64,000 bases of DNA. Origin: Candidatus Omnitrophota bacterium (GTDB lineage: Bacteria; Omnitrophota; Gorgyraeia; Zapsychrales; Fredricksoniimonadaceae). The stretch covers positions 65,049 to 129,048 of the forward strand of contig JBGAJA010000006.1 of NCBI GenBank assembly GCA_044225175.1, in the 5' to 3' direction. The notes under the pieces are model-generated. The model ran no database searches. It was not told the DNA's origin and saw only the letters and a list, made by a program, of their open reading frames with translations. This document shows, in pieces, positions 14,873 to 60,967 of this stretch (positions within the stretch are counted from its first letter, which is position 1; the number at the start of each line of letters is the position of its first letter). Both the position numbers and the translations under genes were made by a program.

Positions 14873-15714
14873 TTATCTTTATATGTTTAAGTCTTTTTTT
14901 TCTCATAATTATCTTTCGTTTAGTAGTTGAGAATCGTCAACTTCGTCAAGAAATTCATCATCAAACACAAAAATTAGAAGTAACTATTAAAGAACTTAAA
15001 ACCGCCCAAATTCGTCTCATGGAAAGCGGAAAAACTTCTGCTCTGGCTGCTCTCAGTGCTGGTATTTTGCATCAAATTAGTCAGCCTATTACAGCGATTC
15101 ATGGATTTGTTCGATTTATGAAAAAAGAAATGAAACCTGAAGATGTTTTTTATAAACCGGTTTCAATTATGGAAGAACAATCTACCTACATGCGTGAAAT
15201 GCTTGAAAATCTGATGGAATTAGTTAGGCATCGTAAGATCCAAAAGGATGCGGTTGATGTTAATGTGGTTCTTAATAAGGCTCTAAATTTGCTTAGTGAT
15301 GAGCTGCGTATTCGTCGTATTGGCTGGGATATCAAATTGGACCCTCACATTCCTCAGGTGTTTGCTGATGCGGTTCATCTGCAGCAAGTTTTCATGAATT
15401 TGGCAGTTAATGCAATGGAAGCTTTAATTGAGAAACCTGCAGGTGAGATCAGGGTTTTAGAAGTATCATCTCATTGGGACATCATGCAAGAATCAGCAAT
15501 TATTCGATTTAAAGATAATGGCCCAGGAATGGCACCTGATGTTCAGTCTAAAATCTTTGATCCCTTTTTTTCTACCAAGGAAAAAGGTTCTGGGATAGGA
15601 TTAGCCCTCTGCTATGATTTAATTAATGAGCACGGAGGACATATCAAGGTTGAGAGTAATGAAGAAGGGACCACATTTACAATTGATTTGCCATGTCTTA
15701 AAAGAATCGCCTAG
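14869..15714 (+). CDS. Sensor histidine kinase (one TM, HisKA plus HATPase_c, no obvious sensor domain)
   Basis: H-box region ILHQISQPITAIHGF, then N-box, G1 (DNGPGM) and G2 (GSGIGLAL) motifs. Confidence 0.75.
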   Translation: MIIFICLSLFFLIIIFRLVVENRQLRQEIHHQTQKLEVTIKELKTAQIRLMESGKTSALAALSAGILHQISQPITAIHGFVRFMKKEMKPEDVFYKPVSIMEEQSTYMREMLENLMELVRHRKIQKDAVDVNVVLNKALNLLSDELRIRRIGWDIKLDPHIPQVFADAVHLQQVFMNLAVNAMEALIEKPAGEIRVLEVSSHWDIMQESAIIRFKDNGPGMAPDVQSKIFDPFFSTKEKGSGIGLALCYDLINEHGGHIKVESNEEGTTFTIDLPCLKRIA

Positions 15715-15724
15715 AGGAGAAGCT

Positions 15725-16111
15725 ATGACAATGCCCCCATCAAATCCTATTAAGATATTAGTTGTTGATGATAAGAAGGTGATCCAAGATTTCTTCGAGA
15801 TTACTTTAGGTTATTATGGTCATTTGATTACTGGAGTCCAGGATCCTCGTCTTGCAACCAAGATTGTTAAAGAACATTCTTTTGATATTGCCTTCATTGA
15901 CATGGTGATGCCGGAAAAGGAAGGCGTAGAAGTCTTAAAATCACTTAAAGAAATTTGTCCTACACTGCCTGTAGTTATGATGAGTGGATATTCCATTCAA
16001 GAAAAGAAGGATGAGGCCCTACGTTTAGGGGCCATGGGTTGTCTTAAGAAACCTTTTGAGTTAGAAGATGTTAGAAAAGTAGTTAAACAAGTGATTGATA
16101 GGGATCTATGA
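15725..16111 (+). CDS. Single-domain response regulator (CheY-like receiver, no output domain)
   Basis: KILVVDD … DIAFIDMVMP (the phospho-acceptor Asp) … MMSGY … KKPF. The ATG at 15725 has an AGGAG RBS. The upstream part of the track ORF overlaps the kinase and is probably not translated. Confidence 0.75.
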   Translation: MTMPPSNPIKILVVDDKKVIQDFFEITLGYYGHLITGVQDPRLATKIVKEHSFDIAFIDMVMPEKEGVEVLKSLKEICPTLPVVMMSGYSIQEKKDEALRLGAMGCLKKPFELEDVRKVVKQVIDRDL

Positions 16112-16866
16112 GCACTAAAAACACTGTATCTGATTTACATTTAGATTCTTCTGAAAGAACCCTTCTTCATGGAGAAATTATTCAAAATAAAGTTTTCTTA
16201 AGAAAGCTATACATTGATTTTTATCGACGATTTCAAAAAGTAATCAAAGATCTTCCATCAAATGGATGTTACGTTGAGCTAGGTAGCGGAGGAGGATTCA
16301 TTAAAGAAGTTCTGCCTCGCGTCATCACATCTGATGTAATGCCTCTTCCTATGATTGATCAGCAATTTTCTGCACTTCAAATGCCTTTTGCTTCAGAAAG
16401 TGTCGATGCATTTATGATGATCAATGTTTTTCATCATATTCCTAATGCAGAGCTATTTTTGAAGGAAGCAAGTCGATGCCTTAAAAAAGATGGAAAAATT
16501 ATCATGGTTGAGCCGGCCAACACACCTTTTGCACGATGGATTTACCAGAATTTTCATCATGAAGATTTCGATGTTAAAGGGGAGTGGTTCTTTGAATCAA
16601 AAGGGCCCTTATCTTCGGCTAATGGTGCATTGCCTTTTATTGTTTTTTTGCGTGACCGACTAGAGTTTACAAAGAAATTTCCCGAACTCAGAATTACAAA
16701 AATTGCACCGGATACGCCATTTCGTTATTTGCTTAGCGGAGGGTTATCTTCTAATTTTTCAATGCCGGGATTTTCGTTTGAATTCTTTAGTGCGTTAGAA
16801 AGAGTATTGACGCCAGTTAATCCTCTGTTGGGGATGTTCTACACGATTGAAATTACAAAAACTTGA
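16108..16866 (+). CDS. Class I SAM-dependent methyltransferase
   Basis: Motif I VELGSGGG and motif II/III regions (…DAFMMINVFHHIP…KKDGKIIMVEP). Confidence 0.6.
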   Translation: MSTKNTVSDLHLDSSERTLLHGEIIQNKVFLRKLYIDFYRRFQKVIKDLPSNGCYVELGSGGGFIKEVLPRVITSDVMPLPMIDQQFSALQMPFASESVDAFMMINVFHHIPNAELFLKEASRCLKKDGKIIMVEPANTPFARWIYQNFHHEDFDVKGEWFFESKGPLSSANGALPFIVFLRDRLEFTKKFPELRITKIAPDTPFRYLLSGGLSSNFSMPGFSFEFFSALERVLTPVNPLLGMFYTIEITKT

Positions 16867-18274
16867 TCTTCTTCATCGCAAATCCACACATCTTAAAGAG
16901 TAATAATCCATGCCTGAATCGTTGAATTTGCGTTGTACCGTATTGACGGTTCTTGTAGCGGATAGGAACTTCAACAACCTTAAGATTTTGTTTAATGGCT
17001 CCAAATATGAGGTCAAAATCACCAAAGGGGTCAAAATCACCGAAATAGTGTCGATTGGCAGCTAGTTCTGTGTAATGGTGCCGTAAGATGACCTTCGTAC
17101 CACACAATGTATCTTTGAATCTCTGCCCTAGAAGCCAGCTGAAGAATAGTCCAAAGAATTTATTAGCAATCAGATTTAAGAAACGCATGGCTTCATCTTC
17201 CATAGGATAAACAAGTCTACAACCATTGATAAATTCTCCCTTACCAGTTTGGATTGCGTGATAGAACTTAGGTAATTCTTCAGGGGGTACGGTTAAATCT
17301 GCATCTAAAATCATCAGAATGTCACATGTGGCATGGCTAAATCCTAAGCGGACCGCGTCACCTTTGCCTTTGCCTTGTTGCCTAAAGAGTTTGATGTCCT
17401 TATGAGGATATTTTGACATAACACGCTCAACTTCTTCATAGGTCCCATCCTTAGAATGGCCTTCTACAAAAATAAATTCCTGATGTTTTCCAAATTCAGG
17501 AGTACGTGTTATGGCCGATTCAATATTTCCTTTTTCATTACGACAAGGAACAAGGATCGTTACAGAGTAGTCTTGTCGTAGCTCTATCTGGGGGCGGGCA
17601 ATGATAAAGTGGCTCAAAGTTAAACCATTAAATAAAGGTAGCTTGGCAAGGAACTTGTTGATTACATAACTAATACCCCAAATGTTAACAGGTAAAAGTA
17701 TGGCCCGATCTGTGCGGATATTCTCAAAGTTACTCAAGTTTAGGAAATTGATAATATCTTTTTCTGTTAGCCAATTCTGTCCAATGCGAGGAATAGTAAG
17801 GTGACACTTTTCAGCAGCTTTTAAGATGAGTTGCCATAAATAACTATGATACTCAATAATAATTCTTGTATCAGAAGTGCAGAATTTTCTTAATGAATTA
17901 AAAAAACTTTCAATATCTAAAAGATCCTCTACCAGTACAGGAAGGATGATGTAGTCAAATTTTTCTTGAGAATCAAAATGATCAATAGTGCCTTTGACAA
18001 ATTGAAGATGAGGGTATTTAGATTTTCCAAGTTCAATCATTTTTGGGCTTAAGTCAATGCCGACCCCAATAGAAGGTTCTAGGCTGGCCAATAAATCACC
18101 GGAGCTGCAACCAACAGCTAATATTTTTTTGCCTTTAGGAATAAAAAATCGGTACTGCTTTTGTCTAAGGCTCTCATAATACTTTCGCCGATGACTTAAT
18201 TTCTCATAATGATTGGCAATATGATCGTAGTGTTGTGAAATTTTTTGAAGTGTGATTTGGTCTGAGCTGCTCAT
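16853..18274 (-). CDS. Fusion protein: N-terminal SAM-methyltransferase domain plus C-terminal family-2 glycosyltransferase domain
   Basis: N-terminal motif I ILAVGCSSGDL. The C-terminal half has the GT2 signature (ILVPCRNEKGNIE… ILDADLTVPPEE). Confidence 0.65.
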   Translation of the reverse strand: MSSSDQITLQKISQHYDHIANHYEKLSHRRKYYESLRQKQYRFFIPKGKKILAVGCSSGDLLASLEPSIGVGIDLSPKMIELGKSKYPHLQFVKGTIDHFDSQEKFDYIILPVLVEDLLDIESFFNSLRKFCTSDTRIIIEYHSYLWQLILKAAEKCHLTIPRIGQNWLTEKDIINFLNLSNFENIRTDRAILLPVNIWGISYVINKFLAKLPLFNGLTLSHFIIARPQIELRQDYSVTILVPCRNEKGNIESAITRTPEFGKHQEFIFVEGHSKDGTYEEVERVMSKYPHKDIKLFRQQGKGKGDAVRLGFSHATCDILMILDADLTVPPEELPKFYHAIQTGKGEFINGCRLVYPMEDEAMRFLNLIANKFFGLFFSWLLGQRFKDTLCGTKVILRHHYTELAANRHYFGDFDPFGDFDLIFGAIKQNLKVVEVPIRYKNRQYGTTQIQRFRHGLLLFKMCGFAMKKIKFL

Positions 18275-18285
18275 ACATTCTCTTT

Positions 18286-21200
18286 TTAACGTTGATTTTG
18301 TAAACGATTGTATATCACAGAAAGAAAATAATCTACTTTGCCTTTTGGTTGAAGCTTTAATTCTTTGCTTTTCAAAGCCAATACAAAAGCTTCACGGTAC
18401 TGTCCTTTTTCTAAAGCTGTCATGGAAGCCGCAAATAGAGTTTCCGCCTGTTTTTCAGTAGAGTTAGTCAAAAGAAAAGCATCCGCAAAATCAGATGTTT
18501 TTATCAGCTCAACAGACAAAGGTTGGTCAGAGAAATCAATAGCATATTGATTGTTTATCTTTGGATTAATCAAAATGACATGGGGAAAGTGATTAAGAAG
18601 ATCATCAGCAAAGATCTTCTGCGTAAAGCTGTTAACCCCATAACCGAATGGGCGTTCGCTATAAAGATTGAAATAAAAACTTTGAGGGTATAGTGAGAAA
18701 AGCTCTGAACTTTCTTTAAAGGAGTAAGTAGGGCTTAAAAGGAATGAGAAGTAAGAATTGGCAAACAATAAGGCAGAGTTTTGGTCGAAGAATATATTTC
18801 GATCAGCCGTTGTCATAATAGTTGCTCCGGGATATTGGGCATACAGTTTCTTGTTAAAAGTCAGGATATGGTTTGTTAAGCCTGACAATTGAGTACGGAA
18901 TAACATTGTGTGAATAATGGTTTGAAGACCAAATACCAGAATCAAGACGATCGTTAATCGGATGAAGATTTTCTTTTTGGTTAATTGCTCTAAATAAAAT
19001 ATGGGAAGGATGATGCTTAATAAGCAGATTCCAGGGATCAGATAGTGAGGGGAATAATGGCTTATTGTGATTAGGAATACAAATAAGACACAAGCGTTTA
19101 ATGCCCATAAGAATTGTGCGCTTCGATGGCGGTAGTTTCGAAAGAGTTTAATAGAACTCCAAAGCAATATTCCACCGGTAATTAGTAAGATCACGCAGTA
19201 AGTCCACAGGATTTTATTAAAGAATATACTTAGAAAATGTGGTGCATCAAGGACTCGAGGCCCGCCAAAAAGCAGATTGCCTGAGAATATTCCAATTGTC
19301 CATTTCCATAAAAGGGGGTATTGCGCATAAATCGGAATGGTCCATACAAAAAAAGACATGATAGTCATGCCTATAAAAAGAAGCTTTTTCTTCCACGGGA
19401 CCATGAGGAAGATAAAAATAAATATAGCAAGAAAGTTTAACTTGGTAGCTATGCCTAAGCCAGCGACTAATCCCAAGAGCAATGTTCCTATTAACTCTGC
19501 TTTTGGAGTTCTCGCATAAAATAGAATACATATGGCTATGCCTAGTAAATTGATGATGCTTATTAATAATGGTTCACAGCTAATATTGGCGCTAATAGGA
19601 AGAGTTGCTAAATTGGAATCCAGGGATTTGATGGTCAAAAGAAATAGGCCTGGGATTTGACTTAAAATTGCGGCAATTTTATTACGTGTTTTATAGAAAA
19701 TGTAAGCTGCCAGGGCAGATGATGTCAGAAAGACCCCCAGCACTAAAACAATGTGGATGGCATGCAGATAATATTCAGGATTTAAAAGTACATTATGGAC
19801 TGTATCTGTAATGGGGCGCCCTAAATTTAAGACGCTGATGACACATGCATACAATAATTGAAGTGGAGTCCCAGGATGATCAATATGGGTGATACTGATG
19901 CCTTTTAGAATATGAATTCCATTAAAAAGATAAACATAGCAAGGATCAGCATATTGCCAAAAAGGTCCTGCGGCAGATCTTAAAAGAAAAGATAATAAAG
20001 CAACCACGCAAGGGATTATAAAAACAAAACTATAAGAAGCTAATGTTGAAAGAATGGGATGAGTTCTAAGTTGAATCTGCTCGATAGAATTTTTATAGGA
20101 CCATCTTCGTCCAAAATCCACGATCGGTTTTTCAAAGTACATCCAAGAGAGTTGGGCACATACGATTGTCATTAAGAATGCACCGATCGTTGTGAAAGCA
20201 TCTGTCCATTGAAGAATTTGAGGCGAACTTTGATTTAAAAATAGAGCATGCATCACCCCAGAAATACCCTGATGAAACAAGTACATGCCGTAGGCAATGA
20301 TTCCTAAGCGGACAATCCAAGGATTACGTACAACAGCTGTAATGACTCCTCGTTTTTCACAGAGAGCAATTAACAATACACACGCATATCCGAAGGCCAG
20401 CAACGAATAGCCATACCACACCATATTCTTTGATAGGACGTTTTTGTCTTTGCACATAATGGCAAATACACAAGCAAAGATGATGGCGGTTGTGATATAC
20501 AACAACGGAATACATCGATGAATTAGATTTTTAATAGTCTTTTTACGCAACAGGAGAGCACATAACACCCCAATCATTAAGGCATCCATACGAGAAGGCA
20601 TCATTAAGAAGCCCCAGAACTCACCATGAGGGACATTGGAGAATAAAAGCATTCTCAACACAGGAGCTGAAAAGATCAGAAAGACAACAACATAGGGTAA
20701 GCTGCGTACCGAACAGGCATAAATCAAAAGGGGAAGGACTAGATAGAATTGTTCTTCAACAGCTAAGGACCAAGTTATTCCAAGCCAGGGGCTTCCCCAT
20801 TCATTAATATTGGCCATAGCAAAATTCTGTGTAAAAGTTAAATAATAAGCAAGGCCAATAGATTTAGGGTCGTTGATAAATGATTTTAAATGAGGATTGA
20901 TCGATGGGAAATGAACAATAGCCCATGTGATCACTTGTAAAAGGAGAATCCATAAGATATAAAGCGGTAATATTCGACAAAAACGACGAATGTAAAAGGT
21001 CTGAAAGAAATTGGTTGCGTGTTTATTATTTAATAAGATTCCACCTAATAAAAATCCAGAAAGCACAAAGAACAGATCCACTCCGCTCCACGTTAACCAT
21101 AAGCATTGATAGATTGTTAAAAGCCAGGGAGTCGAATTGATTTGATCAAAAACGGGGCCTTTTTGGATTTGACAGACGACATAGTGCCAAATCAACACTT

Positions 21201-21294
21201 GAAGAATGGCAAGGCCTCTTAGTCCATCCAATTCAGGGATACGAATTGCAGCAACAGAAATAGATTGATTGAAATCTTTAAAAAATTTAATCAT
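18286..21294 (-). CDS. Fusion: N-terminal acyltransferase-3 (OafA/YrhL-type) domain plus a C-terminal ~600-aa polytopic membrane domain. The C-terminal domain is paralogous to the next two genes and belongs to an unrecognised GT-C-like family.
   Basis: AT3 hallmarks: LDGLRGLAIL…H, GVDLFFVLSGFL, FYIRRFCRILPLY. The C-terminal domain starts at …AAGPFWQYADPCYVYLFNGIHILKG and ends with a TPR-like tail (…TEKQAETLF…ALKSKELKLQPKGKVDYFL…). Both regions align with the ORFs at 21298-23037 and 23043-24800. Confidence 0.6.
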   Translation of the reverse strand: MIKFFKDFNQSISVAAIRIPELDGLRGLAILQVLIWHYVVCQIQKGPVFDQINSTPWLLTIYQCLWLTWSGVDLFFVLSGFLLGGILLNNKHATNFFQTFYIRRFCRILPLYILWILLLQVITWAIVHFPSINPHLKSFINDPKSIGLAYYLTFTQNFAMANINEWGSPWLGITWSLAVEEQFYLVLPLLIYACSVRSLPYVVVFLIFSAPVLRMLLFSNVPHGEFWGFLMMPSRMDALMIGVLCALLLRKKTIKNLIHRCIPLLYITTAIIFACVFAIMCKDKNVLSKNMVWYGYSLLAFGYACVLLIALCEKRGVITAVVRNPWIVRLGIIAYGMYLFHQGISGVMHALFLNQSSPQILQWTDAFTTIGAFLMTIVCAQLSWMYFEKPIVDFGRRWSYKNSIEQIQLRTHPILSTLASYSFVFIIPCVVALLSFLLRSAAGPFWQYADPCYVYLFNGIHILKGISITHIDHPGTPLQLLYACVISVLNLGRPITDTVHNVLLNPEYYLHAIHIVLVLGVFLTSSALAAYIFYKTRNKIAAILSQIPGLFLLTIKSLDSNLATLPISANISCEPLLISIINLLGIAICILFYARTPKAELIGTLLLGLVAGLGIATKLNFLAIFIFIFLMVPWKKKLLFIGMTIMSFFVWTIPIYAQYPLLWKWTIGIFSGNLLFGGPRVLDAPHFLSIFFNKILWTYCVILLITGGILLWSSIKLFRNYRHRSAQFLWALNACVLFVFLITISHYSPHYLIPGICLLSIILPIFYLEQLTKKKIFIRLTIVLILVFGLQTIIHTMLFRTQLSGLTNHILTFNKKLYAQYPGATIMTTADRNIFFDQNSALLFANSYFSFLLSPTYSFKESSELFSLYPQSFYFNLYSERPFGYGVNSFTQKIFADDLLNHFPHVILINPKINNQYAIDFSDQPLSVELIKTSDFADAFLLTNSTEKQAETLFAASMTALEKGQYREAFVLALKSKELKLQPKGKVDYFLSVIYNRLQNQR

Positions 21295-21297
21295 GAA

Positions 21298-23037
21298 TTA
21301 CTTCGGGATTTTGTTATAAATGAAAGCCAGCAAATATTCGACCTTGCCCCGCGGCTCATATTTTAAATCTCTACTTTTTAATGCCAGAGCAAAGGCTTGT
21401 TGAAAATCGCCTTTTTGCAAGGCCGCTTCAGCGAGCGATAAAAGTTCATTAGCTTGCTTTTCTGTTGATCCAGTTAATAGATAGGCATTGGCAAACGATG
21501 ATTGGTCAATCTTTTTAAGCGTGTAGGCAGATTGTTCGATATCTGTATTAGAAAGAAAAATGACGCAAGGATAGTTAGCAAGTAAATCTTCTCCATAAAC
21601 TCGTTGTTGAGAATCCCATATTCCATAGCCATCGTATTGGTCTTGAATGATTTTATCTGGATTAAAGTAATAAGCATGAGGGGAAGCTTTTTTTAGTTCT
21701 TCGTTCTCATGATGAAGAGCATATCTATTGCCAAACAGCAGGGCGTATTCTTGGTTAAGGTATAGGGAAACAAGATTGGAGTTAGAAGCAATCACTGTGC
21801 AGTTAGGGTATTGGGAGTAGATCCGGTCATGAAGGCCCATTGTATCATTTGTCAGATTTGATAAATTGTGATGATACATCACCGCTTGAGTTGTGGTTAC
21901 AATCATGAACAATGGCACAAATGACATAACTAGTTTATTAGCTAGTTGAGTCTGGAACAGACGATTAATGCTTAACAAGAATAGGATGGGGCTGGTAGAA
22001 CAGATCCCTAAGACTAAATAATGCCATGAGAAATGTTTGGCAATAATACCAAAATGTAATAATGTCCCGATACATGCTGCCCATAAAAAAAGAGCATTTT
22101 TATTAGTGCGGTCCTTGATGAATTGAATCGAACTTAAAATAAAAGCTCCTAGAGTTATCAAAACGAAGAACCAATGTTGAGGAAAAATATCTTTGAATAA
22201 ATGGGAGGCGAAGGTATTCCAGTCAACTACCCCTGTTGTACCTGAGCCGAGGGCGCCTGTGTGAGTGACAATGCTTTGAGCCCATTGCCATACTAAAGGA
22301 TATTTAGAAAGTATAGGTAATGTGCAGATAAAAAATGATACAAAAGAAACAGTCATCAGAATAAGTTTCTTTCGTCCTGGGGTCACAATGAGGGCTGAGA
22401 TTAAAAATGTAAAGAAAATTAGTCTTGTAGACAGGCCAAGACCACAGACAAGGCCCATAATCAAGATCCATTTTATTTGGGAAGAAGAATCCTTTGCAAA
22501 ATATAAAGCCAAGAAGCATAAAGTAAAAAGATTAACAATACTTATTAATAAAAGCTCAGGGTTTACATTCGCACTGATAGGTAGGATTGGAAGGTTTGAG
22601 GCGTTTGATTTAATGATTAATGCACAAAGCCCAGGCAGTTGTGTTAGCAGTGCAGCCCATCTATTGCTGGTTTTGTGATAAATATAAACAGCTAATAAAA
22701 CATAGGTTACAAAAGTTCCTAGAATTAACAGAAAATGAACTGCCTGAAAATAGAATTCGGGGTGTACTAAAGCTCTGTGGATAATATCTGGAGTTGAAAG
22801 GCCGATATTAAAGATCCAAATTGTAATGAGAATTATCAGTTGAAGAGGAATACCTGGATGTTGAATTAGGGTGGGAGTGATGCCCTTAAGCATATGAAGC
22901 GCATTAAAGTAGTAAATGTACGAAGGATCGCAGTATTGCCAAAGAGGTCCTCCTGCACTCTTAAGAAAGAAAGCCAAGGTGATAATCACTATGGGAATGA
23001 TTAGTGCAAAACTATATGTTTTTAATAATTTCAGCAT
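21298..23037 (-). CDS. Polytopic membrane protein, paralog 2 of the unrecognised GT-C-like family (membrane domain plus C-terminal soluble TPR-like tail)
   Basis: N-terminal …SAGGPLWQYCDPSYIYYFNALHMLKGITPTLIQHPGIPLQL…. C-terminal …AYLLTGSTEKQANELLSLAEAALQKGDFQQAFALALKSRDLKYEPRGKVEYLLAFIYNKI. It is clearly homologous to both neighbours. Confidence 0.55.
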   Translation of the reverse strand: MLKLLKTYSFALIIPIVIITLAFFLKSAGGPLWQYCDPSYIYYFNALHMLKGITPTLIQHPGIPLQLIILITIWIFNIGLSTPDIIHRALVHPEFYFQAVHFLLILGTFVTYVLLAVYIYHKTSNRWAALLTQLPGLCALIIKSNASNLPILPISANVNPELLLISIVNLFTLCFLALYFAKDSSSQIKWILIMGLVCGLGLSTRLIFFTFLISALIVTPGRKKLILMTVSFVSFFICTLPILSKYPLVWQWAQSIVTHTGALGSGTTGVVDWNTFASHLFKDIFPQHWFFVLITLGAFILSSIQFIKDRTNKNALFLWAACIGTLLHFGIIAKHFSWHYLVLGICSTSPILFLLSINRLFQTQLANKLVMSFVPLFMIVTTTQAVMYHHNLSNLTNDTMGLHDRIYSQYPNCTVIASNSNLVSLYLNQEYALLFGNRYALHHENEELKKASPHAYYFNPDKIIQDQYDGYGIWDSQQRVYGEDLLANYPCVIFLSNTDIEQSAYTLKKIDQSSFANAYLLTGSTEKQANELLSLAEAALQKGDFQQAFALALKSRDLKYEPRGKVEYLLAFIYNKIPK

Positions 23038-23042
23038 TGATA

Positions 23043-24800
23043 TTATTCCTTTTGAATGTGCGGGTAGATCAAGCCAAGGTAATATTCAACCTTACCTCGT
23101 GGTTGGAAATTGAGTTCCCTGGCTTTTAAGGCTAACGCGAAAGCTTGTTGATAGTTGCCTTGTTTTAATTGATTCAAAGCTCCTAAGAAAAAGTTCTCTG
23201 CTTGTTTCTCTGTTGAATTAACGAGTAAATAAGCTTGGGCGTATTTAGATTCTTCGATTGGTTTGACAATAAAAGGGTATTGTGAGAAATCAGAATTTAA
23301 TTTAAGAAAAATACTGCAAGAACCTGCATTTAAAAGATCATCAGCATAAATTCTTTGTCCTTTGAAATTTCTAATGCCATATCCATCATCATAATTTTCT
23401 GGCCGGGGCTCTGTTTGTTCGGAATTAAAATAAAATGTTTTAGGATACAAAGCGTAGATCGCTTGGTCAGCTTTATGGAGGGTGCCATAATTGCCTAAGA
23501 ATAAGCCGTGAGATTGCGTCAGGTAAATATTTGTAGCAGTGGTTGCTGAAGGAAGGATGGAGCAGTTGGGATATTGTGTATGAATTTTTCCGCGTATCTG
23601 ATCTAAGTCGTGGGTGAATTCTTTTACTTGATGATAATAAGAATAAGCCTGAAATGAGCTTTGAATGGAAATGAGTACAATAACAATTAATGTGATTCGT
23701 TTCATAAGCACACTGTGAGGAGTCAATTGAAGATAAAATAATAAGAGTATTGGGCCTAATAAAAGCAGAGAGGGAAGAAGATAGTGGAAAGAAAAATGTT
23801 TAGCTGTGATCAGGATCTGAAGAAGGCTTACCAAACAAAGGGTCAATAACATCTGGACATTCCGGTTCTTCCACTGATTCTTAATTCTTATTAAACACCA
23901 TGAAAAAATTCCAAATGTAAAGAATATTAAGAATTTGAAATGAAGTACAATTGCTGTTAAGTGTGACCAAAATTCAGTCCAATTAATCATCTCTTGTTGG
24001 CCTAATCCATAGTGCCCGGAGTGAGTGATTAGACTGATTATCCAATCAAATAGCTTTGGGTATTGAGCAATGATGGGAATGGTCCACACAACAAAGGACA
24101 GTAGGGATATCGCTATAAAAATAGGTTTGATTCTCCAAGAGACAATGAGCAATCCTGCTAAACATAGAGGAAGGAAAACGAGTTTGATCGCTAATCCAAA
24201 TCCACATACGATTGCTAAGAACACGCTGGCTTTCCATTGATCTTTGGGAGTTTGCGCAAAATATAATTTAAGAAAGAAAAGGTTAAAAAGGTTGATGCTG
24301 CTAATAAGAAATGGTTCGGGGCTAACGTTAGATACAATGGGTGTCACAGCAAAACTGGAGTCAAAGGATTGAATAGTTAGAAGACTTAAAGCGGGTAATT
24401 GTATTAATAGCGCTGCACTTAGATCGTTTGTTTTTTTGTAAATAAAATGACCTAGAAGAATAAATGTTGCCGCAGTGAGAATGGTTAAAGTGACAAATGT
24501 CAGATTTAAATAAAATTCTGGGTGAAGAAAAGCTTCATTGGTAATGTCTGTTTTGGAATGGTTAATATTAAAGAGTCGAATGATAGCTAGAATCAGAAGT
24601 TGTAAAGGGGTGCCTGGATGGGCTGTTTGTGTTGGAGAAATGCCATTAAGCATGTGAATGGCATCAAAAAGATATGTATAACAGGGATCAGCATATTGCC
24701 AAAAAGGGCCAGCAGCGCATCTAAGGAAGATTGAGAAAACTAATGTGAGAAAAGGGATAATGAGCAAGAAAGCCCATCGGAATCGGATAATAAAATTCAA
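23043..24800 (-). CDS. Polytopic membrane protein, paralog 3 of the same family
   Basis: N-terminal …AAGPFWQYADPCYTYLFDAIHMLNGISPTQTAHPGTPLQL…. C-terminal …AYLLVNSTEKQAENFF…ALKARELNFQPRGKVEYYLGLIY. Confidence 0.55.
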   Translation of the reverse strand: MNFIIRFRWAFLLIIPFLTLVFSIFLRCAAGPFWQYADPCYTYLFDAIHMLNGISPTQTAHPGTPLQLLILAIIRLFNINHSKTDITNEAFLHPEFYLNLTFVTLTILTAATFILLGHFIYKKTNDLSAALLIQLPALSLLTIQSFDSSFAVTPIVSNVSPEPFLISSINLFNLFFLKLYFAQTPKDQWKASVFLAIVCGFGLAIKLVFLPLCLAGLLIVSWRIKPIFIAISLLSFVVWTIPIIAQYPKLFDWIISLITHSGHYGLGQQEMINWTEFWSHLTAIVLHFKFLIFFTFGIFSWCLIRIKNQWKNRNVQMLLTLCLVSLLQILITAKHFSFHYLLPSLLLLGPILLLFYLQLTPHSVLMKRITLIVIVLISIQSSFQAYSYYHQVKEFTHDLDQIRGKIHTQYPNCSILPSATTATNIYLTQSHGLFLGNYGTLHKADQAIYALYPKTFYFNSEQTEPRPENYDDGYGIRNFKGQRIYADDLLNAGSCSIFLKLNSDFSQYPFIVKPIEESKYAQAYLLVNSTEKQAENFFLGALNQLKQGNYQQAFALALKARELNFQPRGKVEYYLGLIYPHIQKE

Positions 24801-24950
24801 ATACTAGTCCTCATTTATATACAAAATTTATTAATCGGGTTATGGTACTATAAAATAATATTCTTTAAAAGAATTAAAACAATCCAAAAATAAATCTTAA
24901 TAAATTCTCTAAATTACGATATTATGTCTGCAATTAATTAGTCAGAAATT

Positions 24951-25676
24951 ATGTCTAACCTCAATGGCTCCATGGAATCTTCTGTTTTAAAAACATTACA
25001 TGTTGTACGCGGTTCTCGCAGGTACAATTCATGGCTTTATGATCGTATTAAAAGTCATTTGCGTGGTTCTGTGTTAGATATAGGCAGTGGTTTGGGAGAT
25101 ATTGCTCGTCAGTTTGTGAATCCTTCCATTGATGAGGTTGTCCTCTCTGATTATGCTGATGAAATGCTCAATTTATTAACACAAAATCCTCCTCCATTAA
25201 AAAAGTACCGCATCACCAAGTTAGATATTACTAATCCTCACACCTTTAATGATTATCCAAAAGAACAAGCAGATACGATCACTTGTATTAACGTGTTGGA
25301 GCATATTCAAGATGATGTGAGGGCCCTTAAACATATGAAGAGTTTGCTTAAAAAAGGTGGCAAGGTGGTTATTTTTGTTCCCGCATTACCTGCAATTTAT
25401 GGCACTCTAGATACACATGTAGAGCATTATCGACGTTATACCAAAAGAAGTTTGGGCCGAGTTTTTAAAGAGGCAGGTTTTACGGTTCAAGATTCTTATT
25501 ATATGAACATGTTTGGTATTTTAACCTGGTTTTTTGCTGGACGTATATTAAGACAGAAGAAGTTTCACAAAAATGCTTGTCATATGTTGGATCGCATTGT
25601 GCCTTCTTTAAGGGCAATCGAGAATGTTTTTAATCCACCTTTGGGGCAATCATTAATCATGGTTGGGCAATCCTAA
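24951..25676 (+). CDS. Class I SAM-dependent methyltransferase
   Basis: Motif I VLDIGSGLGD and motif post-II …GGKVVIFVPA. It is transcribed divergently from the paralog triplet. Confidence 0.6.
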   Translation: MSNLNGSMESSVLKTLHVVRGSRRYNSWLYDRIKSHLRGSVLDIGSGLGDIARQFVNPSIDEVVLSDYADEMLNLLTQNPPPLKKYRITKLDITNPHTFNDYPKEQADTITCINVLEHIQDDVRALKHMKSLLKKGGKVVIFVPALPAIYGTLDTHVEHYRRYTKRSLGRVFKEAGFTVQDSYYMNMFGILTWFFAGRILRQKKFHKNACHMLDRIVPSLRAIENVFNPPLGQSLIMVGQS

Positions 25677-25682
25677 ATAGTA

Positions 25683-27113
25683 ATGATCTTATTTTCCAAG
25701 ATTCACTCCTTCTATCTTTTTCATGCGCAGTTAATTGAACGAATTTTGTTCTTAATTGCTATTCTTAGCGCTGTTTTAATTCGTTATTCCTTCCTCAATC
25801 GAGGATTCTTTTATGATGAACTCTTTCTCGTAACTCACTTTCTTCAATCGCCTGAGCTTTTCGGTCCTTCTTTTAAAGATTATACAACTGCTAATCATAT
25901 GGGTTATACGATCTGTTCGTATGTGACAAGTCATTTATTTGGCATGAAAGAATGGGCTGTACGTTTGCCAGCCTTATGTTTTGATATAGCAAGTATGTGT
26001 GTCTTTGGGTATTGGACAAGAAAGTATTTTGGAAGAGCAGTTGCATCGGTTGGAATGATTTTATTTGTTTTTTCTCCAGCAAGTATTATTTGGAGCTCCT
26101 CTGCACGCGGATACTCGGCAATGATATTCTTCACATTAGCTTCCAGTATTCTTTATTTTCGTCTGCTACAACAAACTTCCAAAAGAACGCTGTTTTTGTT
26201 CATAGTTACAAACCTTATTGGGTTTTCCTTCCATTTGTATTTTGCTTTTATCGAGATTGTTCAATTGTTTCATTTGGTATTGTTAGCTTTTGCCAGTAGT
26301 CGATTAAACATATCTAGAAAGAATTTGGTTAATTTATCGATAGGGATGGGGATTACATGCATCTTATCGGTTCTTATCTATGCTCCGATCATGTTCAAGT
26401 TTCTCATGCAGCAAACAGGTGTACATGGGGAATTGATTCCATATTTTCCTTTGAAAGTATTTACAGATTTAATATCTGTCTCATGGTTGCCCTTAGGATT
26501 AATTTGTTTGATTGTGATGATTGTTGGATTTAAATATTTTAATCCCAGATTAGTGTATTGGCCCGTCTATGTTTTATTGTTATTCTTGATTCCATTGCCC
26601 ATTTGGTTGTCGAAACCATGGTTTTTATATCCTCGTTTCTTTTCTTTCTTATTGCCTTTTATTTTTCTTGGACTTGCCAATGGGATGGTCATGATTCCCA
26701 GGCTTTTTCCAAAGCCTTTTCAAATCATCCTTGGACTATGTATGGTGGCAGTCCTATGTGCGATTCTGTGGTCTTGGAAGAACAACTCTGCGAATGTCGT
26801 CCAAGAATTCAATAGCACTTTTAAAGAATCTGTGGCCTTTGCTGAAGGTATATCCAATAGTCAGGTGCGCTTTTGTTCATTTGGGAGTGAAGATCAGTTT
26901 TTTCAATATTATTCCAAACGGCCAGTCATTCAATTTAAGACTTTTGAAGAATTTTTATTATTTTATAATCAGAAGATAGATTCTTTGTGTTTTGCTATTA
27001 TGGGACCACCGATGAATGATGAACATAAGAAGATTTTTCTCTTTATGCTCACGCATTCCCAATTTAAATCTTTTGATAAAATTAATGTGTTTCATATAGG
27101 TGAAAGGCTGTAG
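25683..27113 (+). CDS. GT-C membrane glycosyltransferase, GT39/GT83 (PMT/ArnT)-like
   Basis: First-loop acidic motif …FFYDELFLV…, then …WAVRLPALCFDIASMCVFGYWTRKYFGRAVASVGMILFVFSPASIIWSSSARGYSAM…. This is typical of the ArnT/PMT 4-amino-arabinose or mannosyl transferase fold. Confidence 0.5.
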   Translation: MILFSKIHSFYLFHAQLIERILFLIAILSAVLIRYSFLNRGFFYDELFLVTHFLQSPELFGPSFKDYTTANHMGYTICSYVTSHLFGMKEWAVRLPALCFDIASMCVFGYWTRKYFGRAVASVGMILFVFSPASIIWSSSARGYSAMIFFTLASSILYFRLLQQTSKRTLFLFIVTNLIGFSFHLYFAFIEIVQLFHLVLLAFASSRLNISRKNLVNLSIGMGITCILSVLIYAPIMFKFLMQQTGVHGELIPYFPLKVFTDLISVSWLPLGLICLIVMIVGFKYFNPRLVYWPVYVLLLFLIPLPIWLSKPWFLYPRFFSFLLPFIFLGLANGMVMIPRLFPKPFQIILGLCMVAVLCAILWSWKNNSANVVQEFNSTFKESVAFAEGISNSQVRFCSFGSEDQFFQYYSKRPVIQFKTFEEFLLFYNQKIDSLCFAIMGPPMNDEHKKIFLFMLTHSQFKSFDKINVFHIGERL

Positions 27114-28757
27114 ATGATTATTGTTATTCTTTTAGCGCTCTTAGGTTTGCCTTTATACTTTGGTCTTTTTAGCGAGCATATTGTGGGTGGTCATGATGCA
27201 GCATCAGGGCTAATCAGAGCTATTTGCATGGATAAATATTTGGGTGATGGGCAGATATTGCCTCGTTGGCTTCCAGATGTTAATTTTGGCTTTGGTTCTC
27301 CAATGTTCAACTTTTATCCTCCGTTTTTCTATTTTTTATCTGTTGTACTCTCTAAAGTTACGCACAATATGCTCTTAGCTATGAATTGGGTTTGTATTAT
27401 TCTGTGGATTGTTTCAGGGATTGGCATTTATTTGTTAGCGAAAGAATTTTGGGGGCGTAAAGGTGGGTTGGTATCGGCTATTGCCTACATGTATGCTCCG
27501 TATCATATCCAGGATCTTTATGTTCGAGGAGCTTTTGCGGAATTTAGCGCATTTGCATTTTTTCCTTTGATCATTTTAGCCTTTTACAAGATTAGTAAGA
27601 AAATTGAAGTGAAATATGTCGTACTGGGGACGCTGGGTATTACTTCTTTAAGTCTTACTCACAATGTGATGAGTATGCTCTTTCTTCCAGTCTTGATGTC
27701 ATATATTGTTTTCTTATCGATCTTAAGAAAGAATATTTACATTTTTTTGTTTAATTTTGCAATGGTTGTGGTGGGGCTCATGATGGCTGCCTTTTTTTGG
27801 TTGCCCGCATTTAATGAGAAGAGTTCTTTAAACATGCTTCTTTTGGTCCTCTTTCATTATGATTTTCATCAGCACTTTCTTTCTTTAGCTCAATTGTTTA
27901 ATACTCCATGGGCGGTTAATCCTGAGGATCAAACAAAGTTGCCTTATCATGTAGGATTGTTTCCTGTCATTTTAGTGGTGGTTTCTTTAGGTCTTGTGAT
28001 TAAAAGGTTCAAAGAAAATAAAGAGATGTCTCTGCATTATCTATTTTTTCTTTTTGTAACTATTGTCGCTATGTTGTTTACTCTGCCCATTACTGAGATC
28101 ATTTGGGAAAAAGTCATTTTATTAAGATGTATTCAATTTCCATGGCGTTTATTGGCGATCATCAGTTTTTTTGTCTCGTTAATGGCAGGTGGAATCATGC
28201 TCATAAATAAATCAAAAGTGGTTAGTAATTTTATTCTTATTGGAGTCATGATTGTCATTATGCTTTCATCCGCGAAATTAATTTCCAGCATAAAGTTTAA
28301 GAATATAGATCAAGTTAAGATCAAAGAACACCTTTCTGAGCTTACTTTTTTGGGAGAAGGTGAATATACTCCTCGGTGGATTATGAAAGTGCCAACATCA
28401 AAACTGCCAGACAAATTTATGTTCTTACAGGGTAGTGGAACTCTCACAGAATATAAAAAGATTAATGCTGTAGAGCACACTATACGTGTGATGTCTTTTC
28501 AACCTGCCATGTTATGTTTTGGTTCTTTTTATTTTCCAGGATGGGAAGCTTTTATAGATGGTAAGTCAACGCCTCTCAGGGCCGACAATCAATATGGGCT
28601 TGCGGTCTTTGTGGTTCCTCCTGGAGACCATCTAGTGAAAATGGTCTTTAGAACAACTCCTATTCGACAACTAGCTGTGAGGATTTCTTGGGGAGGATTA
28701 ATCTTGTTTATCATTGGATTATTTCTTATTCGAAAATCAAATTGGTCAAGATCATGA
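27114..28757 (+). CDS. YfhO/PTPS-related-domain membrane protein (predicted GT-C glycosyltransferase)
   Basis: N-terminal …GGHDAASGLIRAICMDKYLGDGQILPRWLPDVNFGFGSPMFNFYPP…. The C-terminal …FPGWEAFIDGKSTPL… is typical of the 6-pyruvoyl-tetrahydropterin-synthase-related (YfhO-like) membrane family. Confidence 0.5.
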   Translation: MIIVILLALLGLPLYFGLFSEHIVGGHDAASGLIRAICMDKYLGDGQILPRWLPDVNFGFGSPMFNFYPPFFYFLSVVLSKVTHNMLLAMNWVCIILWIVSGIGIYLLAKEFWGRKGGLVSAIAYMYAPYHIQDLYVRGAFAEFSAFAFFPLIILAFYKISKKIEVKYVVLGTLGITSLSLTHNVMSMLFLPVLMSYIVFLSILRKNIYIFLFNFAMVVVGLMMAAFFWLPAFNEKSSLNMLLLVLFHYDFHQHFLSLAQLFNTPWAVNPEDQTKLPYHVGLFPVILVVVSLGLVIKRFKENKEMSLHYLFFLFVTIVAMLFTLPITEIIWEKVILLRCIQFPWRLLAIISFFVSLMAGGIMLINKSKVVSNFILIGVMIVIMLSSAKLISSIKFKNIDQVKIKEHLSELTFLGEGEYTPRWIMKVPTSKLPDKFMFLQGSGTLTEYKKINAVEHTIRVMSFQPAMLCFGSFYFPGWEAFIDGKSTPLRADNQYGLAVFVVPPGDHLVKMVFRTTPIRQLAVRISWGGLILFIIGLFLIRKSNWSRS

Positions 28758-29467
28758 AAAGCATTTCGATTGTTATTCCAGCAAAAGATGAAGAGAAGCG
28801 TTTGCCGATTTTTCTTAAAACAGTGATTGAATTCTGTAATCGCTCTACACATTCCTATGAGATCATTATTGTTGATGATGGCAGCAAGGATGCTACAGCA
28901 TCTTTGGCACTAGAATTTCAAAAAGAGTTTTCTTCATTGAAGATCATTTCATTGGACCGCAATCACGGAAAAGGTTTTGCGGTCAAGCAAGGATTCTTGG
29001 CTTCCCATGGAGATATTGTTTTATTCTTAGATGCGGATGGTTCAACGTCACCTACGGAAATTGAGCGACATCTATATCTATTAGATCAAGAAAATGATGT
29101 GGTGATTGGATCAAGGGTTTTAAGGGATGGGCAATCTCAGGTTAAGAGTCGTTTTTATCGCAAGATTATGGGTCATGTGTTCAATTATTGTGTCTCATCT
29201 TTTTTGATCAAAGGAATCAAAGATACTCAATGTGGTTTTAAGATGTTTAAAAGTACAGCTGCGAAAAATATATTTCAGAAAGTTTATTTGGAAGGGTTTG
29301 GTTTTGATTTGGAAGTCCTATTCTTGGCGCAAAAGTTTCATTACCGCATTAAAGAAGTTCCCGTCAACTGGTCTCACGTGCAAGGAAGCAAGGTCAATAT
29401 TTGGAAAGATTCTTTACGAATGTTCTTCAATATTCTAGAAATCAAAAAATTACATAAAGATCTTTAG
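28754..29467 (+). CDS. Family-2 glycosyltransferase, polyprenyl-phosphate sugar synthase-like (DPM1/ArnC/GtrB type)
   Basis: ISIVIPAKDEE… IIIVDDGSKD… LFLDADGS…; about 237 aa and soluble. The ATG at 28754 overlaps the previous stop (ATGA). Confidence 0.8.
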   Translation: MKSISIVIPAKDEEKRLPIFLKTVIEFCNRSTHSYEIIIVDDGSKDATASLALEFQKEFSSLKIISLDRNHGKGFAVKQGFLASHGDIVLFLDADGSTSPTEIERHLYLLDQENDVVIGSRVLRDGQSQVKSRFYRKIMGHVFNYCVSSFLIKGIKDTQCGFKMFKSTAAKNIFQKVYLEGFGFDLEVLFLAQKFHYRIKEVPVNWSHVQGSKVNIWKDSLRMFFNILEIKKLHKDL

Positions 29468-30873
29468 TATGCTTTAGGGAGGCCTAGGGCATGGCGCATG
29501 TCCATCCACATGGCACGTGAAGAAGAACAGCTGTCTCCGTGGTAATTCATCAGATAATAGCGGAAGTGATAGTCGTTTTCTTGGTATCGAACCATAAATT
29601 TGACCCAGTCTTCCTTGGTCTTCGCATGCAAAGCTTCTTCTTTGGTCCAGAAACTAAACCAACCCATGCTCTCTTTAGGGTACACTGTAAAATATCCTCT
29701 TAAGAAGACGAATGCAAAGATGATCCCTGTTACTGTGACAATGATAAAGGTGGCTTGCCATCGCTGGGTTAGCATCCATAATCCATAAGCCAATAATAAG
29801 CATGAGAAGGGAAGGGCACTCACAGTTCTTAAATTGCTGGGGAGGCCCCCTTGAGTTAAAGCTGCCGGAATAATAGAAATCAATATATTAATAAATAAAA
29901 AAATAAGCCACCAATGATGCGCTCTTGTAGCTTTAAATTGAAAGATTAAGAACCCAACCAGACATAGAAGTCCTAGAATTTCAACCCAACTTAAAAGTCC
30001 AACGTGTTGGGTAGAATGTTCCCATGAGGGATCTCCCGTTACAAATAAATATTGAGGAGTAAAGTGGGAGAAATAATTCTTTAGGAAAATTTCGGACAAA
30101 TCATGAATGCTTTTGGTTTTTCCAATACTGTGAAGAAATTCTTCATTTGCGATTGAAATGCCTTTAAATCGTTCCTGTAAATTTCCAAACAAAGTACCGT
30201 GAATTAAAGGAATACAAGGGATGACCAAGGCCAAAACAAAGGCGATGAAATTCTTTTTATTAAGAGTTTTTATTTGGAATTGATAGATAAACAATGTGAT
30301 GAGAAATAAAGGAACCTGCATGCGAGCAGGAGGATAGACATACAATGCACACGCAAATAAAAGTCCCGCCCAGACTTTATCTAACACCTTTGGAGAACGA
30401 AGAAAGAAGAATAAGCCCCAAATGATAAATGTGGCACAAAAAGTAGATTCATATCCTATTCTAGAGAGATTCCAACACCACGGAGAAAGGCTTGCTATAA
30501 AAGCTCCTAAGAGACCGTATGAGGTCCCCAAGAGTAGACGTCCTACAAAGAATATGCCAATGACGGTTAAGACATTGAAAAAAGCCGTGAAGGCTCTGAG
30601 TTTATCAACGGTAGGTCCAAATATTTTGACCCATAGAGCAGCAGGATATGCGTACACAGGAGGTTTAGGAGTGCCGTAATGTTGTTCAAAGAATAAGGGA
30701 TGAGGGATGAGATGTGCATCAGTTCCCTGAGTTTCAAGGCATTGAATGCTGACTGCACCTGCCAATTCATCGACATTAAAACCATAAGGAACGTCATCTA
30801 ACCAACAGAAACGAAGGATGTTGATAACGATAATGGTAAGAATAATCAGTGCGCAAGAAATCTTTTTGATCAT
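29464..30873 (-). CDS. GT-C membrane glycosyltransferase, ArnT/PMT (GT83/GT39)-like
   Basis: N-terminal …LRFCWLDDVPYGFNVDELAGA… (the DE motif in the first periplasmic loop), followed by about 12 TM segments. Confidence 0.6.
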   Translation of the reverse strand: MIKKISCALIILTIIVINILRFCWLDDVPYGFNVDELAGAVSIQCLETQGTDAHLIPHPLFFEQHYGTPKPPVYAYPAALWVKIFGPTVDKLRAFTAFFNVLTVIGIFFVGRLLLGTSYGLLGAFIASLSPWCWNLSRIGYESTFCATFIIWGLFFFLRSPKVLDKVWAGLLFACALYVYPPARMQVPLFLITLFIYQFQIKTLNKKNFIAFVLALVIPCIPLIHGTLFGNLQERFKGISIANEEFLHSIGKTKSIHDLSEIFLKNYFSHFTPQYLFVTGDPSWEHSTQHVGLLSWVEILGLLCLVGFLIFQFKATRAHHWWLIFLFINILISIIPAALTQGGLPSNLRTVSALPFSCLLLAYGLWMLTQRWQATFIIVTVTGIIFAFVFLRGYFTVYPKESMGWFSFWTKEEALHAKTKEDWVKFMVRYQENDYHFRYYLMNYHGDSCSSSRAMWMDMRHALGLPKAY

Positions 30874-55826: not shown

Positions 55827-55855
55827 TGGTTTTATAGTGCCATTAATACTTAATT

Positions 55856-57574: not shown

Positions 57575-57586
57575 CATATTTAACTT

Positions 57587-59290: not shown

Positions 59291-59300
59291 TGGAGGGAAA

Positions 59301-59726: not shown

Positions 59727-59743
59727 TAAATTGAGGTCTAAAT

Positions 59744-60961: not shown

Positions 60962-60967
60962 TCATTT

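Follow-up and report, generated by a model that had tools for sequence, protein, structure and literature searches.

Ten genes of an Omnitrophota genome with six GT-C-type proteins, and a methyltransferase-GT2/GT-C gene module that recurs in several phyla

What does a bacterium of the phylum Omnitrophota make with ten closely packed genes for methyltransferases, sugar-transferring enzymes and polytopic membrane proteins? The question is raised by positions 16108–30873 of a 64,000-nucleotide stretch of contig JBGAJA010000006.1 (Candidatus Omnitrophota bacterium, assembly GCA_044225175.1); the whole of this stretch is called the window here. To our knowledge, the Omnitrophota are almost entirely uncultured, and we know of no experimental work on their envelope glycans. 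The ten open reading frames (ORFs) are all at the coordinates expected from the ORF list, and Pfam and NCBIfam searches bear out the domain assignments given to them in an earlier, sequence-only reading of this DNA. The locus encodes two separate methyltransferases (MT1 and MT3), a methyltransferase fused to a glycosyltransferase family 2 domain (MT-GT2), a free-standing protein of the same family (GT2), three members or relatives of known families of GT-C membrane glycosyltransferases (GTC_a, GTC_b and GTC_c) and three paralogues of a family named X here. Two of the paralogues (X2 and X3) stand alone and the third (AT3-X) is fused to an acyltransferase 3 (AT3) domain. The main new result is that MT1, MT-GT2 and an X-family GT-C protein form, as judged by sequence comparison, a conserved module that is present in several phyla. 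The locus as a whole is read as a system for extracytoplasmic glycosylation that draws on lipid-linked sugars and is organized as two donor/transferase modules in divergent operons. We assign this reading a probability of about 0.6.

The recurrence of the module was assessed by scanning one genome per species, which gives 75 loci with relatives of X. All ORFs of these loci were searched with the window proteins, and 71 of the loci hold an X match in this search. In 19 of these 71 loci, the X gene has a full-length homologue of MT-GT2 (E 1e-122 to 1e-235) no more than 3.1 kb away, and in 13 of the 19 the distance is under 200 bp. These loci are from Omnitrophota, Bacteroidota (Maribellus, Draconibacterium and other Prolixibacteraceae), Gemmatimonadaceae, a deltaproteobacterial metagenome-assembled genome (MAG) and, within the Burkholderiales, both Burkholderiaceae and Alcaligenaceae. 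Eight further loci contain a short GT2 gene that adjoins or overlaps the X gene. In other phyla, 14 loci combine homologues of MT-GT2 and X with an adjacent MT1 homologue (E 1e-55 to 1e-81). By a rough estimate, the chance that a gene with about one copy per genome falls within any particular 20-kb stretch is well below 1%. Chance juxtaposition of the genes is rejected because the module recurs across phyla. The sequence-only reading had supposed a system not described for this type of organism; the core module is spread over several phyla and is not peculiar to this one. In the literature searched, the general paradigm is found and the MT-GT2/X module is not described.

The other half of the locus also has counterparts. 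MT3 (E ~1e-42) and a 240-residue GT2 protein (E ~1e-20) occur together in 12 Bacteroidota loci. The Maribellus locus (L009), the one locus annotated in detail, has the order MT1, MT-GT2, X, a polytopic protein, MT3, a second polytopic protein, GT2 and an ArnT-like PMT_2 protein. Homologues of this last protein form a cluster in 10 loci. Between the X side and the MT3 side of the Maribellus locus, at 13056–13726, there is a toxin-antitoxin-like pair consisting of a Gp49 (HigB-like) gene and a helix-turn-helix (HigA-like) gene. Profile hidden Markov models built from the Pfam-less polytopic neighbours in the Bacteroidota loci match none of the window proteins. In locus L059, MT1, MT-GT2 and X share an operon with a separate AT3 gene, which comes before them. 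In a Burkholderiaceae locus (L013), two O-methyltransferases of the TylF family (macrocin-type, acting on sugars) follow the X/MT-GT2 pair at 13234–14733, which, on sequence grounds, again links the module with sugar methylation. The same pair is preceded by DUF218, GNT-I-like and DUF5672 genes.

The X family itself required structure prediction for its classification. X2, X3 and the C-terminal part of AT3-X share ~40% mutual identity. Neither X2, X3 nor the ~590 residues that follow the AT3 domain have a match in Pfam, PMT_2 included, and X2 and X3 have none in NCBIfam either. Searches of PDB sequences with the X paralogues and with GTC_a, GTC_b and GTC_c return nothing useful. An AlphaFold2 model of X2, computed from a 9-sequence alignment, has a pLDDT of 77 and a pTM of 0.75. 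When this model is used as a Foldseek query, the top 20 matches are all GT-C enzymes, with ArnT (5f15) in first place at E 5e-5. In the structural comparison of X, the best match is the protein O-mannosyltransferase Pmt4, at 12% identity, and AftB, AftA, PimE, EmbA and AftD are also among the matches. On this modelling, the X paralogues have a predicted GT-C fold, with a helix number within the 7–13 transmembrane (TM) helices of such enzymes and an overall structural likeness to them. In X2, ~11 TM helices would be followed by a C-terminal alpha/beta domain on the periplasmic side, whose tail resembles tetratricopeptide repeats (TPRs).

Conservation was scored over 54 diverse members of the family. 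D37, Y40, P61 and Y340 are invariant in all 54, and G62, E94 and K205 (K or R) are, with others, nearly invariant. The highly conserved residues comprise Y40, HPG at 60–62, PE at 93–94, K/R205, H335 and Y340. D37 is located 3–5 residues after TM1, so that the first loop holds a conserved acidic residue. GT-C enzymes characteristically have their catalytic base at such a position, as an invariant Asp shortly behind TM1. In the 11-TM topology of the model, all highly conserved polar residues are on the outer side, either within the first outside loop or where TM helices end, and the cytoplasmic loops contain none. The same topology places 10 Lys and Arg residues inside versus 4 outside, which by the positive-inside rule suggests this orientation. 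All three window paralogues retain the D, HPG, PE and H..HY motifs. Whereas the fold and the placement of the motifs are computed, sugar transfer by X and its orientation towards the periplasm are what they suggest. PIG-U/GAB1 subunits share the GT-C-like membrane scaffold, and it is conceivable that the X proteins do so as well without being glycosyltransferases, with a role in lipid binding, transport or polymer ligation. We regard this as very improbable.

An exhaustive search with the X-family profile recovers 2,308 representative clusters (50% identity) at E <= 1e-3 and 1,043 at E <= 1e-30. When the 54 members are scanned individually, a few weakly match GT87, PMT_2 or PMT, and one carries the carbohydrate-binding module CBM_4_9. 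The profile has no significant similarity to the single sequences of GTC_a, GTC_b and GTC_c in hhalign. For this reason the possibility that X is merely a divergent member of PMT_2 or PTPS_related is rejected at the sequence level. In comparison with Pfam, NCBIfam and PDB sequences, X is a large GT-C-fold family that neither Pfam nor NCBIfam models and that lacks a relative of solved structure. A polyprenyl-phosphate sugar as the donor of X is indirectly supported by the adjacent DPMS/ArnC-like synthase gene in 27 of the 71 loci.

The remaining three polytopic proteins are assigned by profile searches. GTC_c passes the threshold of PMT_2 (PF13231), which we take to be the Pfam family that contains ArnT. 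GTC_a is under the gathering threshold of the same family (19.0 versus 26.1 bits) and has ~9 hydrophobic segments after overlapping windows are merged. PF13231 is present in nearly all of the 67 homologues of GTC_a, some of which are labelled GT39, ArnT-like or RgtA-D-like by their sources. GTC_b passes the threshold of PTPS_related (PF10131) over residues 65–404 and also has a weak PMT_2 match; PF10131 presumably belongs to the GT-C clan. Hydropathy gives many TM segments in all six polytopic proteins and none in MT1, MT3, MT-GT2 or GT2. Six GT-C-type proteins is the best count because GTC_c and GTC_b pass their thresholds, the homologues of GTC_a carry PF13231 and X has the predicted fold. 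The sequence-only reading had spoken of "perhaps six" GT-C enzymes, a number that the structure prediction for X and the PMT_2 and PTPS_related families support. It had also staked its case on whether the GT39/83-like and PTPS-related ORFs would hit GT-C families in profile searches, and both fall in such families.

On the donor side there are two candidate enzymes. The GT2 domains of both proteins contain a DAD motif of the DXD type and resemble DPMS, ArnC and GtrB, and both are classified as putative polyprenyl-phosphate sugar synthases. Among PDB sequences, the best matches of the 237-residue GT2 protein are ArnC (E 1.5e-18), Pyrococcus DPMS and GtrB sll0501, and those of the GT2 half of MT-GT2 are DPMS 5mlz (E 7e-17) and ArnC. 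An AlphaFold2 model of MT-GT2 (pLDDT 80) matches ArnC and DPMS with its C-terminal half and generic class I methyltransferases with its N-terminal half in Foldseek. This protein ends in an amphipathic helix. The DPM1-like enzyme of the sequence-only reading is thus present as the 237-residue GT2 protein, and the fusion is a second such domain that had not been counted. At E <= 1e-30, over 8,000 homologues of MT-GT2 are known; identity is 63–72% for the top 120, many of which are from Omnitrophota. By these comparisons MT-GT2 is far more conserved and widespread than X. The start of the shorter protein is most likely the ATG at 28754 (MKSISIV...) and not the TTG at 28688. The TTG lies 66 nt upstream and would overlap GTC_b by 70 nt, and the ATG fits the start of the Pfam domain and gives a 4-nt ATGA overlap with the GTC_b stop.

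In the proposed mechanism, GT2 and the GT2 half of MT-GT2 would each transfer a sugar from a nucleotide carrier to polyprenyl phosphate on the cytoplasmic side of the membrane. The three methyltransferases would act before export, since they contain no TM segments and are taken to be in the cytoplasm, where S-adenosylmethionine is available. Most plausibly they O-methylate the donor sugar in its lipid- or nucleotide-linked form; this is the likeliest substrate because one of the methyltransferases is fused to a synthase. The lipid-linked sugars would then be flipped across the membrane, and six periplasm-facing GT-C enzymes would transfer them to an envelope acceptor. X2, X3 and AT3-X would be paired with MT-GT2 and MT1, and GTC_a, GTC_b and GTC_c with GT2 and MT3. 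The AT3 domain is assigned with 96.2 bits against a cutoff of 31. It is plausible that AT3-X consists of about ten AT3 helices followed by a GT-C domain with its N-terminus inside. The fusion suggests acylation of the same product on which X acts, and the AT3 domain would carry the acyl group across the membrane to it. The product most likely consists of methylated, possibly acylated sugars on an envelope glycoconjugate. The sugars, the type of acceptor (glycan, lipid A or protein) and the chemistry of methylation and acylation are inferred. The general logic of the sequence-only reading, in which a soluble GT2 enzyme makes a polyprenyl-phosphate sugar that GT-C enzymes use, fits the relationship to DPMS, ArnC and GtrB, the GT-C fold, the placement of the conserved residues and the linkage with MT-GT2.

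Several observations weigh against this reading. The X2 model was built on nine sequences only and contains disordered stretches. Neither GT2 protein has the C-terminal TM helices that are seen in ArnC, GtrB and archaeal DPMS, and their GT2 domains are below the NCBIfam equivalog cutoffs (88 versus 529 bits for ArnC and 99 versus 325 for AglJ; PpgS likewise). Both may for these reasons be ordinary glycosyltransferases with another acceptor. Soluble polyprenyl-phosphate glycosyltransferases do exist, for example human DPM1 and the catalytic domain of mycobacterial Ppm1. A flippase of the GtrA, SMR/ArnEF, MATE or Wzx type is absent from the scanned window ORFs (49 ORFs of at least 120 residues) and is not conserved in the related loci. 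In two of three other Omnitrophota genomes, MT-GT2 adjoins Pfam-less polytopic proteins other than X, so its pairing with X is not obligatory. Its neighbours in these three genomes also include a NAD-dependent sugar epimerase/dehydratase (two of three) and an MT1 homologue (one of three, L078). What varies is therefore the membrane transferase, whereas the synthase remains constant.

The non-X polytopic neighbours of MT-GT2, or of the syntenic island, in other Omnitrophota are ~390–490 residues long with ~6–10 hydrophobic segments (L077, 9718–13552; L079, 9894–13672; L001, 15534–18288). They have no match in Pfam, NCBIfam or the X-family profile and may be further unclassified membrane transferases. 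In L077 and L079 they are followed by nonulosonic-acid genes (NeuB, DegT).

The acceptor in the proposed mechanism would be a pre-formed envelope glycoconjugate, lipopolysaccharide (LPS) or a different surface polysaccharide, which receives its decoration once exported. This is favoured because the window has no initiating phosphoglycosyltransferase, polymerase, ligase or exporter. Among the scanned ORFs there is no Wzx, Wzy, WaaL, initiating phosphoglycosyltransferase or ABC exporter, and inside the locus there is no room for an extra gene. A standard O-antigen or LPS-core cluster, which the sequence-only reading had named as the finding that would overturn it, is rejected because the scanned ORFs contain no homologue of Wzx, Wzy or WaaL. 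Assembly of a new glycan or glycolipid step by step in the periplasm, as in mycobacterial arabinan and lipoarabinomannan synthesis, is an alternative to decoration. Six GT-C enzymes to two synthases resembles the mycobacterial layout of many GT-C enzymes and few donors (PMC11127046), and the X paralogues are old and divergent, with 37–49% identity and a separation that predates the split from the lineage of the related Omnitrophota MAG described below. However, neither the locus nor the window encodes an enzyme for primer formation or machinery for export or attachment, and gene content differs among close relatives in the manner typical of variable decorations. We consider stepwise assembly unlikely.

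Modification of lipid A or the LPS core by a system of the ArnC/ArnT, LgmA/LgmB or RgtE/RgtA-D type, possibly under the control of a histidine kinase and response regulator, is possible, though on the doubtful side. LgmA/B and RgtE/RgtA-D are relatives of the ArnC/ArnT pathway. The organism makes LPS, given the presence of LptF and LptG, which are housekeeping components of LPS transport encoded 5 kb upstream of the locus. GT2 is closest to ArnC in both NCBIfam and PDB sequences, GTC_c and GTC_a fall in PMT_2, and several GTC_a homologues bear ArnT-like or RgtA-D-like names. MT1 directly follows genes for a histidine kinase and a receiver-only response regulator at 14869–16111 (+) and is translationally coupled to them, its start overlapping the stop of the regulator gene, and receiver-only regulators recur near X homologues. 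Against such a system, ArnA, ArnB, ArnD, ArnE and ArnF are all absent from the scanned window ORFs, and the six GT-C enzymes far exceed any known lipid A modification system. The NCBIfam scores for both ArnC and ArnT are far under the equivalog cutoffs, with ArnC, at 88 bits, the best match of GT2, and a domain scan detects no output domain in the response regulator. Receiver-only regulators form a cluster in six X-bearing loci; in L042 (11639–12007), one follows the X gene at a distance of 136 bp, and another is located in L005 (15988–16356).

The GT-C enzymes could instead act like PMT or TMTC enzymes in the O-glycosylation of secreted or surface proteins, such as pilins or large repeat proteins. 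Pmt4 is the best structural match of X, and proteins of the close X subfamily have a TPR-like C-terminal tail reminiscent of the TMTC enzymes. Possible substrates are encoded in the window as well, namely a type IV pilin set and a secreted repeat protein of 1740 residues. The likeness to Pmt4 is structural only, however, and none of the six window proteins has a PMT domain (PF02366) or a MIR domain. The TPR-like tail is limited to the closest relatives of X, while other members end early or bear carbohydrate-binding or immunoglobulin-like domains, which points to glycan rather than protein acceptors. The pilin genes are 25 kb distant. Protein O-glycosylation is accordingly judged improbable, and decoration of a pre-formed envelope glycoconjugate is the preferred reading.

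The synthase/GT-C scheme as such is already known. In O-antigen glucosylation by GtrA, GtrB and GtrC and in the GT136 pentofuranose systems, it has three components (PMC11127046). The present locus would share with these systems the cytoplasmic synthesis of a polyprenyl-phosphate sugar and the transfer to an exported glycan by an outside-facing GT-C enzyme. It differs from them in that no GtrA, MATE or SMR flippase is found, in that six GT-C proteins and two synthases without TM anchors replace one of each, and in that three methyltransferases and an AT3 domain are integrated. Two synthase/GT-C pairs in one locus, SccN/SccM and SccP/SccQ, occur in Streptococcus mutans SCC, for which the flippase is likewise not identified (PMC11754754). 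Each SCC pair adds a decoration of its own, and the two-pair arrangement is the point of likeness. Unlike the present locus, SCC is Gram-positive, is tied to a rhamnan cluster with an ABC exporter, contains neither a methyltransferase nor an AT3 fusion and has GT-C enzymes from known families. The ArnC/ArnT pathway resembles the locus in the family membership of GT2, GTC_a and GTC_c, and differs in the Arn enzymes and score noted above, in its far smaller number of GT-C enzymes and in the absence of methyltransferases.

Mycobacteria maintain networks of GT-C enzymes that include Ppm1/PMT, PimE, the Emb and Aft enzymes and the methylthioxylose capping pair Rv0539/Rv0541c. As proposed for the present locus, several GT-C enzymes use lipid-linked donors, and methylthioxylose capping is a precedent for a modified (methylthio) sugar on a lipid donor. 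The phylum and the envelope are different, and no sequence similarity is detected. In arabinan synthesis, several GT-C arabinofuranose transferases draw on a single lipid-linked donor, and new GT-C families with variable C-terminal domains, carbohydrate-binding modules included, continue to emerge (PMC11127046). The AT3 fusion is comparable to enzymes of the OafA/OafB type in that an AT3 membrane domain is joined to a periplasm-facing partner acting on a surface glycan. Enzymes of that type are AT3-SGNH O-acetyltransferases, whereas Pfam detects no SGNH domain in AT3-X, in which the partner is the X GT-C domain. The X family, its pairing with MT-GT2 and MT1, and the AT3/GT-C fusion are not described in the libraries and papers searched, and the same is true of six GT-C genes within 15 kb in a Gram-negative candidate phylum.

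The locus predicts a heavily decorated surface that is made outside the cytoplasm. As a tentative extension, MT1, MT-GT2 and X may constitute a new pathway present in several phyla, in which a sugar is loaded and O-methylated in the cytoplasm and transferred outside by X, which would be a new CAZy GT-C family. In the present genome X would be tripled, and the AT3 fusion would physically couple acylation of an envelope target to glycosylation of that target. A methylated lipid-linked sugar would be a new type of donor for periplasmic glycosylation. X is paired genetically with a very widespread and highly conserved methyltransferase-GT2 fusion, and the module occurs in genera with cultivated members (Draconibacterium, Maribellus and Mariniphaga), in which direct tests are feasible.

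The same locus is present in the Candidatus Omnitrophota MAG nDJH6bin18 (L001), between lpdA and a block consisting of the histidine kinase and response regulator, DUF192, Maf and phosphoribosyltransferase genes. The flanking proteins are 50–86% identical overall (lpdA 83%, phosphoribosyltransferase 86%, histidine kinase 74%, Maf 68%, DUF192 51%), and the glycosylation proteins only 44–70%. The synteny, the 68–86% identity of most flanking housekeeping genes and the names of the top database matches also place the window in the Omnitrophota. The GTC_c orthologue, at 63% identity, occupies the same slot after lpdA. The GTC_b orthologue has a faint YfhO match and a weak PMT_2 match. MT1, MT3, the AT3 fusion and MT-GT2 are absent from this MAG locus, which contains in addition a PTPS_related gene, a GT2 gene with an epimerase gene and three more Pfam-less polytopic proteins. 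The site is conserved and its content variable, as the flanks align while the gene content differs; this is typical of surface-glycan loci.

Within the locus, the 24801–24950 region is the only sizeable gap, and two divergent operons start there (Table 1). The leftward operon has the order X3, X2, AT3-X, MT-GT2, and the rightward operon has the order MT3, GTC_a, GTC_b, GT2, so that a GT2-type enzyme terminates each. In promoter and terminator scans, the matches in this gap are no better than the shuffled expectation.

Table 1. Genes and intergenic region of the glycosylation locus, in window coordinates
Feature	Position	Strand	Description	Evidence
MT1	16108..16866	+	252 aa, soluble class I SAM (S-adenosylmethionine) methyltransferase	Pfam Methyltransf_11, E 2e-11
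MT-GT2	16853..18274	-	473 aa, fusion of a methyltransferase and Glycos_transf_2	GT2 part E 1.6e-20
AT3-X	18286..21294	-	AT3 (PF01757) acyltransferase, residues 20-382, and predicted GT-C domain, ~415-1002	Acyl_transf_3, E 2.6e-27
X2	21298..23037	-	579 aa, polytopic, predicted GT-C fold	AlphaFold2 model; no Pfam/NCBIfam match
X3	23043..24800	-	585 aa, third X paralogue, leads leftward operon	40% identity to X2
Divergent intergenic region	24801..24950		AT-rich, 150 bp, presumed promoter region	sequence
MT3	24951..25676	+	241 aa, soluble class I SAM methyltransferase, leads rightward operon	Methyltransf_23, E 1e-18
GTC_a	25683..27113	+	476 aa, PMT_2-related (GT39/GT83-like) GT-C	PMT_2 19 bits, sub-threshold
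GTC_b	27114..28757	+	547 aa, PTPS_related/YfhO-like GT-C	PF10131, 58.7 bits vs 26.4
GT2	28754..29467	+	237 aa, soluble, ArnC/DPMS/GtrB-like	Glycos_transf_2, E 2e-30
GTC_c	29464..30873	-	469 aa, PMT_2 (ArnT/PMT-like) GT-C	PMT_2 44.1 bits vs 26.1

GTC_c has a 4-nt overlap with lpdA, the last gene of the aceE-aceF-lpdA (pyruvate dehydrogenase) operon (29464–32336, -). It has the same position in nDJH6bin18 (L001, 1–2799), an odd coupling of a glycosyltransferase with central metabolism.

The remainder of the window contains LptF/G, housekeeping genes, glycogen genes, a type IV pilus set and two large uncharacterised proteins. The 1740-residue protein (36957–42179, +) has an N-terminal signal-like sequence and approximately seven repeats of 73 residues, which correspond to a 219-bp tandem array at 38844–40361 with 79% matches. 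A second repeat family has a unit of ~70 residues. The gene has a strong GC skew, and its Pfam matches are only spurious ones in low-complexity regions. The second large protein, an ORF of 1352 residues (49678–53736, +) with zero Pfam matches, is downstream of DsbA-like and MauE/DoxX genes. The pilus set, which resembles those of type IV pili and type II secretion systems, is at 55377–62820 (+) and includes two tandem PilB-like ATPases, a PilC-like platform protein, two small MshEN-only proteins and a prepilin with an N-methylation motif.

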